Source: Escherichia phage wV7. Taken from it: a stretch of DNA of 64,000 nt. The notes beneath the pieces are model-generated. The model worked only from the letters and a program-made list of their open reading frames with translations, made no database searches and was not told the origin of the DNA. Positions 15,430 to 63,972 of this stretch are shown piece by piece. Location: the sequence record NC_019505.1; one strand, 5' to 3'. The first letter of the stretch is position 1, and each line of letters begins with the position of its first letter. A program made the translations under genes and the position numbers.

Positions 15430-15437
15430 TATTTATA
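15430..15437 (-). promoter_or_regulatory. late promoter (soc)
   Basis: Exact TATAAATA on minus strand ~30 nt upstream of soc ATG. Confidence 0.65.
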
Positions 15438-15579: not shown

Positions 15580-16098
15580 TTAATAACCTCGGTCCTGACG
15601 AGCAAAGTTCTCGGCATTTTTCAGATAATAAAGTTTAAAGATTTCTTCTGCTGTAAGACCAAGACCTTGGAACATGTTCAGAACGAAATGGAGAATATCA
15701 ATCATTTCAAACTTAATTTCCAGTTGGTCTTGTGGAGACAAATCAGTAATCAGAGTTTCACGACGTTCACCATGCTGCGACTTCCAAGGTTTCCATACAG
15801 CAGATGCGTCTTTTTCACCATTACTCATACCACCAAGAGAAGTCAGAAGTTCACGGAATTCATCATCAATATAATCTTTCTGATTACGCAGCCAATCAAC
15901 AACTTCACCTGCAGTAGCCAAATCATCAGGATGACGGTTATATTCAGGTTTATCTTTAGCTAAACGAACCTGTAAAGATTTCTGCATATCAAGCATAACT
16001 TGCAGCGGGTCTTTTTCATCACCGAGAATATCCCAATATTCATTTTGAGCTTTATCAGCGCCTTCAATCAGTTGTGAACATTCGTTAAAGTAAGCCAT
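15580..16098 (-). CDS. 56: dCTPase/dUTPase gp56 (MazG-like)
   Basis: 172 aa from M32 (MAYFNECSQL); length and sequence match T4 gp56 as recalled. Confidence 0.85.
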   Translation of the reverse strand: MAYFNECSQLIEGADKAQNEYWDILGDEKDPLQVMLDMQKSLQVRLAKDKPEYNRHPDDLATAGEVVDWLRNQKDYIDDEFRELLTSLGGMSNGEKDASAVWKPWKSQHGERRETLITDLSPQDQLEIKFEMIDILHFVLNMFQGLGLTAEEIFKLYYLKNAENFARQDRGY

Positions 16099-16132
16099 TA
16101 TTTTTCCTTTCAATTCATGGGTTAGTAGATTA

Positions 16133-16157
16133 ATTATACAATAAATATATAAAGCAA
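16133..16157 (-). promoter_or_regulatory. MotA-dependent middle promoter candidate (gene 56)
   Basis: MotA box TTGCTTTA, 11-nt spacer, TATAAT. Confidence 0.5.
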
Positions 16158-16169
16158 TAAGGAGGACAT

Positions 16170-16370
16170 ATGGTACAAAAATTAATGGCACTTGTTAATG
16201 CCATCAAAGGTAATAAGAAACGTATAGCTTTTACTATTTCTGCTATGGTAGGAATTTTACTCTGGAACTTTATTTTATCACCAATTGCAATTGCACATGG
16301 TGTTAATATTCCAGTAGTTACTCTTGATACATTTGTAGATTTAGCATTTGCTTTAGTTGGGTTAATTTAA
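16170..16370 (+). CDS. small hydrophobic protein on opposite strand (2 predicted TM segments)
   Basis: 66 aa; AAGGAGG Shine-Dalgarno 5 nt before ATG; convergent with gene 61 with overlapping stops. Confidence 0.4.
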   Translation: MVQKLMALVNAIKGNKKRIAFTISAMVGILLWNFILSPIAIAHGVNIPVVTLDTFVDLAFALVGLI

Positions 16371-17395
16371 ATCTTAGCATATTTAGATAACCGCATTTTA
16401 GCCATCAACCCCTGGGCAATATTATTTTTCATATATTCCATAATTTGTTCAGGGGTTGCACCTTCCTTTCTAATCATATCATTAACATCTTTTGATTTCC
16501 AGGGAGATTTATCCCAAAACATAACCCTTTCTCCTGCATCAACTAATTTAGTCATTCGTTTGATAGTGTCAGGGTGACGAGGTTCATTATCTAAAACCCA
16601 CACTCGTCTATCTTTAAATGGAACAATTTCTAGGTCTAATTGACCGCCAGTAATGGCTATACCATTTTCAATAAAAAGTGAATCTATAGGTCCTTCTAGA
16701 ACATATACATCGCCATCTTTAACTCGTTCGACTCCATATATTTTTGTTGCCTCAGGATAAGCTTTAATGGTGATATATTTTTGAGGAGCATCTTTCTTTA
16801 ATGCACGTCCTTGAAAAGACTCAGCTTTTCCATTAGCATTATAAATTGGAATAACAAGACGAGGCTCAGAAATTTCCTTTTTATATGTTCCTGGTGCTAT
16901 GCTATTAACTAATTTAGGCCATTCAGTTGTAAACCAAAGATATTTCCATTTATCCTTTGGAATACAACGAGCTTTTACGTATTTTATAATTGGATGGTCT
17001 TCCGCCAGTTTATCTAATCTAACACATGACGGAAGAGATTTAATTATTTTCTTCTCAGGTTGTTTAGGAAGTTCTTTAGGTTTTTCTACTGGACGACTTT
17101 TACCTTTTTCTTTTCTTATTTCAAAGATATACTCACGATATAAATCAGGTTCAAACTCCTTTAAATATATTCCGATTGGTGCATGATAGTTACAGTTATA
17201 ACAATGAATATTTCCTTCATTATTATCACCATAATACCATCCACGAGCTTTATTCTGGTCGGTTTTTGAATCTCCACAAACAGGGCATCTAAACCGTAAT
17301 TTAAAAGTTGAACTATTATTTACTTGTGTGAATTTAGGTAAATGAGCTAATGCACGGTATGCAAACTCATTATCAATCCAAGGTATTGATGACAT
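16367..17395 (-). CDS. 61: DNA primase gp61
   Basis: 342 aa; zinc ribbon CPVCGDS...CYNC; TOPRIM-like EGPIDSLF. Confidence 0.9.
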   Translation of the reverse strand: MSSIPWIDNEFAYRALAHLPKFTQVNNSSTFKLRFRCPVCGDSKTDQNKARGWYYGDNNEGNIHCYNCNYHAPIGIYLKEFEPDLYREYIFEIRKEKGKSRPVEKPKELPKQPEKKIIKSLPSCVRLDKLAEDHPIIKYVKARCIPKDKWKYLWFTTEWPKLVNSIAPGTYKKEISEPRLVIPIYNANGKAESFQGRALKKDAPQKYITIKAYPEATKIYGVERVKDGDVYVLEGPIDSLFIENGIAITGGQLDLEIVPFKDRRVWVLDNEPRHPDTIKRMTKLVDAGERVMFWDKSPWKSKDVNDMIRKEGATPEQIMEYMKNNIAQGLMAKMRLSKYAKI

Positions 17396-43223: not shown

Positions 43224-43265
43224 AATAAAACCCTTACCTTAAATAGATAAGGGTATTTATTATTT

Positions 43266-56362: not shown

Positions 56363-56652
56363 TCAGTCTCCAATTTAATGTTCATAATTCTAGCGTATGA
56401 TTGTGCCATCTCCGCGCCTCGCTCTATACATTCAAAATCAGAAGAGCACGGGTCATTTTTATAGGTCGTTCTCATAAAACTATAGAATTGTTCAGACGAT
56501 TCTACGCTTTTATTTTCAAAAAGCATATAAACGTGCCTAATACCAGATTCCATAAATTTATCAAAATGAGGATCGACATTCGCTTCAATTGGTGGAGATA
56601 AAGCAAACGCTAATCCTAGCATGGCAAATAGTGCCGTTGCTTTTAAGGCCAT
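56359..56652 (-). CDS. rI: RI lysis-inhibition regulator (periplasmic antiholin)
   Basis: 97 aa with N-terminal signal-anchor; near-identical to T4 RI as recalled. Confidence 0.8.
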   Translation of the reverse strand: MALKATALFAMLGLAFALSPPIEANVDPHFDKFMESGIRHVYMLFENKSVESSEQFYSFMRTTYKNDPCSSDFECIERGAEMAQSYARIMNIKLETE

Positions 56653-56664
56653 AAAGGCCTCCTA

Positions 56665-56877: not shown

Positions 56878-56919
56878 ATATACCCCTTTAGTTAGATAAA
56901 CCTATTTATAACTTTTGCA

Positions 56920-61088: not shown

Positions 61089-61450
61089 TACAAACTCTCA
61101 GTAAAGGTACGAGCGATAACGTCGCGCTGCTGTTCCGGAGTCAGAGAGTTAAAGCGAACTGCATAACCGGATACACGGATGGTCAGCTGCGGATATTTTT
61201 CCGGATGCTTAACTGCATCTTCCAGAGTTTCACGACGCAGAACGTTAACGTTCAGGTGTTGACCACCTTCAATTTTAACTGTAGGTTGTGTTTCAATTTC
61301 AATTTCACGGGCATGCAAACCGTAGAAAATTTCTGGGTCTACAAAAGAGTCCTCTTTAAAGGTTTTAGAGACAATAATTCGTGCTTGAATACCATCTTCA
61401 AAATAAATAGTACCTTTATGTGTGCCTTCAAGAATTTGATATGCTTTCAT
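61088..61450 (-). CDS. autonomous glycyl radical cofactor-like protein (GrcA/YfiD-like)
   Basis: 120 aa; C-terminal RVSGYAVRF glycyl radical signature. Confidence 0.7.

Positions 61451-63426: not shown

Positions 63427-63972
<546 letters not shown>

Follow-up and report, generated by a model that had tools for sequence, protein, structure and literature searches.

Nearly every gene in the 64,000-nucleotide stretch of Escherichia phage wV7 (NC_019505.1) analysed here, which we call the window throughout, runs on the minus strand: among ORFs of at least 100 amino acids, 70 are found on that strand versus 3 on the plus strand, in line with what the first-pass annotation of this DNA had noted. 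Between genes 56 and 61, a 66-codon ORF is read in the opposite direction, and the question it raises is whether it constitutes a gene and, if so, when it would be expressed and what kind of protein it would encode. The elements of the interval are as follows:

16170..16370, plus strand: coding sequence of a microprotein of the dam.1 family, 66 amino acids plus the stop codon
16159..16165, plus strand: Shine-Dalgarno sequence AAGGAGG, 4 nt from the ATG, with AGGAGG-ACAT-ATG occupying 16160-16172
16367..17395, minus strand: primase gene 61, convergent with the dam.1 ORF
15580..16098, minus strand: gene 56 (dCTPase), with its annotated ATG at 16098 and a Shine-Dalgarno sequence of its own
16367..16370, no strand assigned: TTAA, where the stop codons of the dam.1 ORF (plus strand) and gene 61 (minus strand) overlap by 4 nt

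The location of the ORF, its length and its convergence with gene 61 had been described correctly, and the interval, previously given as about 270 bp, measures 268 bp (16099-16366). The same ORF is annotated as hypothetical protein ECTP7_01180 in KP869105.1 (E. coli O157 typing phage 7, Tequatrovirus), a record that matches the window at 100% over the 2 kb compared. A start of gene 56 at GTG 16191, as given in a mechanically generated ORF list (15580-16191, minus strand, spanning the promoter region), was rejected; ATG 16098 is the start in the annotated record. The stop codons of the two convergent genes have positions 16368-16369 in common, and an identical 4-nt overlap is present in T4, Mosigvirus, S16 and Moon. 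This overlap had been placed within a palindrome, and a palindromic core, ATTTAAAT (16365-16372), does exist; the string quoted for it, TTAAATTTAA, is absent and the actual sequence is GGTTAATTTAAATC. Similarly, the ribosome-binding site AAGGAGG is there, while the description of its spacing as optimal has to be toned down, a gap of 4 nt being at the short end of the working range. Since the nearby plus strand holds several chance ORFs of 60-100 amino acids, the length of the dam.1 ORF is by itself weak evidence, and its significance stems from its conservation and its expression signals.

The relation of this ORF to the dam methyltransferase gene of T4 had been presented as one of position, with the ORF lying where T4 carries dam. 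The absence of dam from the interval was confirmed and extends to the whole window, where no Dam homologue was found (tblastn, best E value 0.33). T4 has both, and the counterpart of the ORF lies in the 309-bp gap between dam and gene 61 (NC_000866.4, 17738..17938, plus strand; 97% identical to the window ORF). Because T4 carries the ORF beside dam, it is not a dam replacement. Neither the T4 RefSeq record (NC_000866.4) nor the 1984 record X01416 has an annotation at this position. The T4T record HM137666.1 names the ORF dam.1 (T4Tp032, ADJ39749.1), the name that we have adopted, and in RB14 and RB32 it is called RB32ORF030w. Dam.1 of T4T, RB32ORF030w, PHROG 2024 and the window ORF are the same gene, with proteins that are 95-100% identical and equal position and orientation. 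It is a known hypothetical gene, so that there is little new in it as a gene.

T4-type genomes have dam between dam.1 and gene 56; in the window, dam.1 abuts the gene-56 promoter. When the window and T4 are aligned, the T4 dam cassette has the gene-56 promoter's Mot box on one side and the dam.1 ribosome-binding site on the other. T4-type dam DNA was found in 184 phage records only, compared with about 500 records for the Tequatrovirus ORF at >90% identity, and the layout without dam is common to the window, Mosigvirus, Gaprivervirus, Jiaodavirus and Gelderlandvirus. Given that few records have dam and that other genera share the layout lacking it, the latter is the commoner of the two, and it is probably also the older. 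A third layout was observed in a Tequatrovirus contig from IMG/VR, with an extra gene of 186 amino acids immediately upstream of dam, separating it from dam.1 (locus L010, 1341-1901, minus strand). Homing-endonuclease genes have also entered the space that separates dam.1 from gene 61, or its vicinity (locus L004 of Yersinia phage vB_YenM_P8, 2280-3047; PP355091.1). With cassettes inserted on either side of dam.1, the 56-61 interval appears as an insertion hotspot in which dam.1 itself stays intact.

Comparison of the interval across related phages had been proposed as a check on the ORF, and it was found to be conserved across genera. Using a T4-type query in tblastn, the ORF was present in 691 phage records, being full-length in 685 of them, and a Klebsiella-type protein query added 169 further records (153 full-length). 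The resulting set of ~860 phage records covers at least seven genera of Tevenvirinae (Tequatro-, Mosig-, Gapriver-, Jiaoda-, Moon-, Gelderland- and Kanagawavirus), plus two metagenomic clades. Homologues are always on the strand opposite to their neighbours and on the gene-56 side of gene 61, usually with the 4-nt stop overlap, and this position and orientation are retained despite the insertion of dam, an extra gene or a homing endonuclease on either side. The window protein matches the PHROG 2024 profile, a family of unknown function, with an E value of 1.5e-31 over residues 2-66 of 66, and the profile is matched by every subfamily, the diverged ones included, at E values of 4e-19 or lower. 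A signature made up of a basic N-terminus followed by W-N-[F/Y]-x3-P and G-x3-P-x3-L-[D/E] is complete in the window protein (W32, N33, F34, P38, G44, P48, L52, D53), and its residues W-N-[F/Y]-x3-P...G...P...L-[D/E] remain invariant or nearly so among proteins with 25-55% identity. Pairwise dN/dS values of dam.1 homologues are between 0.1 and 0.5, even with saturated dS, and codon position 2 is the one that varies least (e.g. 29/12/40 differences at positions 1/2/3).

These data bear on the reading in which there is no gene at all, and a chance ORF in an AT-rich gap has been preserved through elements of the gene 61 terminator, the gene-56 promoter or oriA. Chance ORFs of 60-100 codons are indeed common on the plus strand here, the interval does contain a middle promoter and a hairpin (see below), and the two T4 records mentioned above carry no annotation. 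Still, the frame is intact in genera whose DNA is too diverged to share such elements, the protein signature persists at low identity, the codon-position pattern and dN/dS indicate coding selection, and the Shine-Dalgarno sequence is conserved. We regard a chance ORF as close to refuted, and dam.1 as almost certainly a genuine coding gene.

The family is neither universal nor connected to other proteins in the searches done. It was not found in the 56-61 neighbourhood of one Karamvirus, one Winklervirus and one Acinetobacter phage, for which positive controls were strong, so dam.1 is not essential for a T4-like life cycle. An exhaustive phmmer search against 1.8 billion representative proteins revealed no relatives beyond the family, the matches being members, fragments and three long repetitive proteins that were judged spurious. 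A word-indexed search with the single sequence returned only relatives with >90% identity and fragments, and a scan of IMG/VR gave 10 loci. Sequence searches in Pfam, NCBIfam, PADLOC and PDB gave no usable match to Dam.1, and Foldseek found none in PDB and only family members in BFVD. Full-text searching found no literature on the ORF. One relative, the 61-amino-acid protein database entry P0034, differs from the T4-type protein almost exclusively by A>V, T>I, S>F and P>L changes; this is the pattern of C-to-T conversion, so it probably corresponds to an artefact of the source reads and not to a real variant.

The signals that might direct expression of the plus strand were then located, and the relevant elements are:

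16140..16147, plus strand: variant T4 late (gp55-type) promoter element AATAAATA, 22 nt upstream of the dam.1 ATG
NC_000866.4, 17709-17716: the T4 counterpart of this element, GATAAATA, preceding the dam.1 ORF
15430-15437, minus strand: ATAAATA copy
43254-43261, minus strand: ATAAATA copy
56903-56910, minus strand: ATAAATA copy
63948-63955, minus strand: ATAAATA copy
16140-16147, plus strand: ATAAATA copy, the one ahead of dam.1
61402-61409, plus strand: sixth ATAAATA copy

Late promoters of T4, dependent on gp55, gp33 and gp45, consist of an 8-bp element at about -10 and lack a -35 element. The sequence is TATAAATA, and among 50 T4 sites listed 32 are perfect and 9 have A instead of the first T; this A(-13) class, to which AATAAATA belongs, is the commonest variant in that list, and variant late promoters are active in vitro, some of them having been tied to RNA 5' ends in vivo (PMC2988020). 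The element ahead of dam.1 agrees with TATAAATA at 7 of 8 positions and is directly followed by the A/T-rich sequence TATAAAGCAATAA. Such motifs are scarce in this AT-rich window: NATAAATA has 6 copies in the 64 kb, versus about 41 expected, while TATAAATA has 3 (10.6 expected) and VATAAATA also 3 (30.7 expected), and the heptamer seems to have been purged from places where a late promoter is unwanted. For five of the six copies, a Shine-Dalgarno sequence with an ATG follows 16-31 nt downstream on the same strand, namely those of soc, rI.-1/rI, e, gene 49 and dam.1. The combination ATAAATA-N8-30-RGGAG occurs just three times in the window, before soc, e and dam.1. There are likewise only three occurrences of AGGAGG-N3-8-ATG in the 64 kb, at 16160-16172 (plus strand, dam.1), 56650-56663 (minus strand, rI) and 63919-63931 (minus strand, e), and all three of these genes stand behind late-type promoters. 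The sixth heptamer (AATAAATA at 61402-61409, plus strand) is antisense to a minus-strand gene, some 40 nt in from its 5' end, with no Shine-Dalgarno sequence or ATG after it, and could be an antisense late promoter or a chance survivor.

The arrangement ahead of dam.1 is maintained in the family. NATAAATA was identified 12-33 nt ahead of the ATG in 12 of 15 dam.1 loci (~10 clades), with a perfect TATAAATA in Enterobacter phage IME523; of the other three, two (from two genera) have ATTAAATA and one (a metagenomic clade) shows no clear motif. An AGGAGG-type Shine-Dalgarno sequence with a gap of 4-6 nt is kept in all 15, and in Tequatrovirus the heptamer persists although three different upstream contexts occur that are not homologous to one another. 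No sigma-70-like promoter was found on the plus strand upstream of the ORF. In one metagenomic clade the dam.1 stop codon coincides exactly with an intrinsic terminator on the plus strand, which is sensible only if that strand is transcribed there. Judging from these sequence signals, it is likely that dam.1 is driven by a late promoter, which may be weak, since the first T of the consensus is almost never present (A, G or C being found instead). The first-pass annotation had overlooked this motif, which offers the best account of how a plus-strand gene is expressed in the early region.

On the other strand, two further elements overlap or adjoin these signals:

16133..16156, minus strand: candidate MotA-dependent middle promoter for gene 56, TGCTTTA-N11-TATAAT, with the Mot box TTATTGCTTTA
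16172..16207, minus strand: terminator-like hairpin with a T-run, the hairpin and the five T after it being placed at 16207..16182, over codons 5-13 of dam.1; -14 kcal/mol, z -3.7

The candidate middle promoter, already pointed out in the earlier annotation, is borne out as a sequence match. Defining such promoters by a Mot box (a/t)(a/t)TGCTT(t/c)A followed after 11-13 bp by a TAnnnT -10 element, there are 11 MotA-type sites in the window versus 2.25 expected. The gene-56 promoter of the window aligns with T4 P(M)16.53, which is annotated in X01416; its position is that of the T4 oriA feature, the note in the record stating that the primer RNA is the gene-56 transcript. AATAAATA falls within the spacer of the gene-56 promoter, so that the late and middle promoters are divergent and overlap, and Gaprivervirus and Mosigvirus retain this promoter pair, a few bp apart. 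The early-strand hairpin is located just upstream of the middle promoter and, from its sequence, might terminate or attenuate transcription coming from gene 61. T4 has a weaker version of it, and none was seen in the Mosigvirus and Gaprivervirus-type loci that were folded. As a cause of the conservation of dam.1 the hairpin was ruled out; it is limited to Tequatrovirus, and the peptide is conserved where the hairpin is missing.

Transcription of the plus strand, if it occurs, would allow for a different reading, in which RNA is the main product: a late transcript would run into gene 61 and shut off primase mRNA as an antisense, the ORF being secondary. The overlap of the dam.1 and gene 61 stop codons fits this idea, no plus-strand terminator was detected in gene 61 in the window, and the close linkage between the ORF and the 3' end of gene 61 is kept across genera. 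There are also sites in T4 where both strands are known to be transcribed, each at a different time (PMC2988020). Such a role is hard to reconcile with conservation at the amino-acid level and dN/dS well below 1, with the clade in which the intrinsic terminator at the ORF stop precedes the next gene, or with the Gaprivervirus-type phages, in which a spacer or a homing endonuclease separates the ORF from gene 61. An antisense function could be an add-on in Tequatrovirus and cannot account for the whole family, and as the main role of the locus we consider it improbable.

With a late-expressed, protein-coding dam.1 as the preferred reading, the predicted features of its product are of relevance. 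Two segments were delimited:

16215..16295, plus strand: predicted transmembrane helix, residues 16-42 (hydropathy, AlphaFold2, alignments)
16296..16367, plus strand: C-terminal tail, residues 43-66, with an [H/N/Y/Q]-G-x3-P loop and a predicted helix 52-63 that includes L52-[D/E]53

An AlphaFold2 model built from an alignment of 24 sequences has helices at residues 2-12, 16-42 and 52-63, with a mean pLDDT of 75. The predicted transmembrane helix carries the invariant W32-N33-[F/Y]34 and P38, is preceded by a basic patch (K13-G-N-K-K-R18), and has a Kyte-Doolittle value of about 2.0 over residues 18-42. The residues that are invariant or nearly invariant in the family (W32, N33, F/Y34, P38, G44, P48, L52 and D/E53) are distributed between this helix and the tail. 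The C-terminal segment is hydrophobic and includes D53 and D57, with a predicted cost of insertion of +6.5 kcal/mol on the Hessa scale; the tails of the Klebsiella, Salmonella and Citrobacter subfamilies contain PP, D/E, K and H, which makes a second transmembrane pass unlikely. The two hydrophobic segments reported previously are thus literally present, and only the first one (~18-42) holds as transmembrane. Basic residues are found N-terminal to the helix in all subfamilies, from which an N-in, C-out orientation is predicted. Hydropathy, the positive-inside rule and a model of medium confidence together make a single-pass N-in/C-out topology the somewhat favoured arrangement, with the tail predicted to be periplasmic or interfacial. 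The 48-residue hydrophobic stretch that follows R18 is the only large tryptic peptide, and standard proteomics may miss Dam.1.

A small hydrophobic protein with late signals could also be a peptide that damages the membrane, as type I toxins and pinholins do. Early in infection its mRNA would be repressed by the fully complementary transcript reading through from gene 61, and late in infection the peptide would depolarise the membrane. In addition to its size and hydrophobicity, this would agree with the entire ORF being antisense to early-strand transcription leaving gene 61, with the hairpin and T-run over the first dam.1 codons on that strand, and with the label 'Holin' on one UniProt entry of the family. 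Class II holins and pinholins (e.g. phage 21 S, 68-71 amino acids) resemble Dam.1 in size, hydrophobicity and, as predicted for Dam.1, late expression. Unlike Dam.1, these proteins have a pair of transmembrane helices, their C-terminus is charged and cytoplasmic, and they are encoded in a lysis cassette. Dam.1 has one convincing transmembrane segment (~18-42), and its C-terminal segment, with the unfavourable insertion energy given above, two Asp residues and a model helix of only 12 residues, does not qualify as another; the C-terminus, which ends in ...AFALVGLI, is hydrophobic, not charged. There is no lysis cassette either: the neighbours are genes 56 and 61, with no endolysin gene among them, e being ~47 kb distant, at about 63.9 kb in the window. 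Furthermore, the 'Holin' label is a name given by submitters or automatically, no Pfam or PHROGs holin family matches the protein, T4 already has the T holin, and the early-strand hairpin is limited to Tequatrovirus. A type I system would use a dedicated antisense small RNA with a promoter of its own; for dam.1, generic early-strand read-through is the only antisense RNA available. On balance, a toxin or pinholin seems as doubtful to us as the antisense RNA discussed before.

Among known systems, the closest analogues for how Dam.1 might act are bacterial microproteins of the AcrZ, MgrB and KdpF type, which have 30-70 amino acids, one membrane helix with a conserved polar/aromatic face and no enzymatic domain; the likeness is one of architecture only, with no homology. 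T4 RI is a small envelope protein, as predicted for Dam.1, and its gene shares with dam.1 an ATAAATA-type late promoter, an AGGAGG ribosome-binding site and a location in the early region. RI is a protein of 97 amino acids whose signal-anchor can be released and whose periplasmic domain is folded and binds the T holin, whereas Dam.1 has only ~24 residues past its membrane helix, and there is no sequence similarity between the two. In Enterobacter (Karamvirus-type) phages, moreover, RI is present and no Dam.1 was found. Co-occurrence with rI was set aside as a functional clue: the counts per host genus are similar, but this is expected for genes confined to the same genera, and the Enterobacter phages deviate. 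Imm and Sp of T4 are small T-even envelope proteins as well, and sp lies about 2 kb from dam.1 in the same cluster; these are early genes on the early strand, while dam.1 has late signals and is on the other strand, and there is no sequence similarity.

Taking these elements together, our preferred reading, to which we would assign a probability of roughly 70% from the sequence data, is that dam.1 forms a late transcription unit of its own, whose product is a microprotein that spans the inner membrane once and modulates another envelope protein. The unit would consist of the AATAAATA promoter, with a predicted plus-strand transcription start at about 16153-16156, a strong ribosome-binding site and the 66 codons; it would run against the early and middle genes, back-to-back with the MotA promoter of gene 56, and end at the stop overlap with gene 61. 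The product would have a basic N-terminal amphipathic helix, presumably cytoplasmic, one transmembrane helix that places the invariant W-N-[F/Y]...P face in the inner membrane, and a tail of ~24 residues with the G...P...L-[D/E] motif and a short helix, in the periplasm or at the membrane surface. By analogy with single-pass microproteins, Dam.1 may use its intramembrane face and short acidic tail to bind a larger envelope protein and tune it, and it would do so late in infection, the phase that settles lysis timing, lysis inhibition and envelope integrity. A specific role in lysis timing or envelope control, suggested by analogy on the basis of timing, size and the signals shared with rI and e, is a tentative and rather unlikely proposal. 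Even more speculative is the view of Dam.1 as an overlooked late envelope component of T-even phages, for example a membrane partner that determines how stable or active the T holin/RI lysis-inhibition machinery is, or one that helps to seal the envelope against superinfection; under this reading, the lack of an annotation in the T4 reference genome would explain why it escaped notice for decades.

On present evidence Dam.1 is an ordinary conserved hypothetical protein. If it acted on lysis timing or superinfection, it would be an extra part for a classic and incomplete system. As a locus, dam.1 would exemplify a late gene placed head-to-head with a middle promoter, here the one for the oriA primer in T4, all within about 35 bp. 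That a conserved, apparently late gene for a membrane microprotein is absent from the RefSeq records of IME523 and of T4, which is among the most thoroughly studied viruses, is chiefly a point of annotation, and screens or omics studies built on RefSeq gene lists may therefore miss it. In IME523 (Kanagawavirus, NC_070777.1), the unannotated homologue has 69 amino acids (locus L030, 1501-1710, plus strand), overlaps the 3' end of the primase gene by 24 nt and has the perfect TATAAATA ahead of it.
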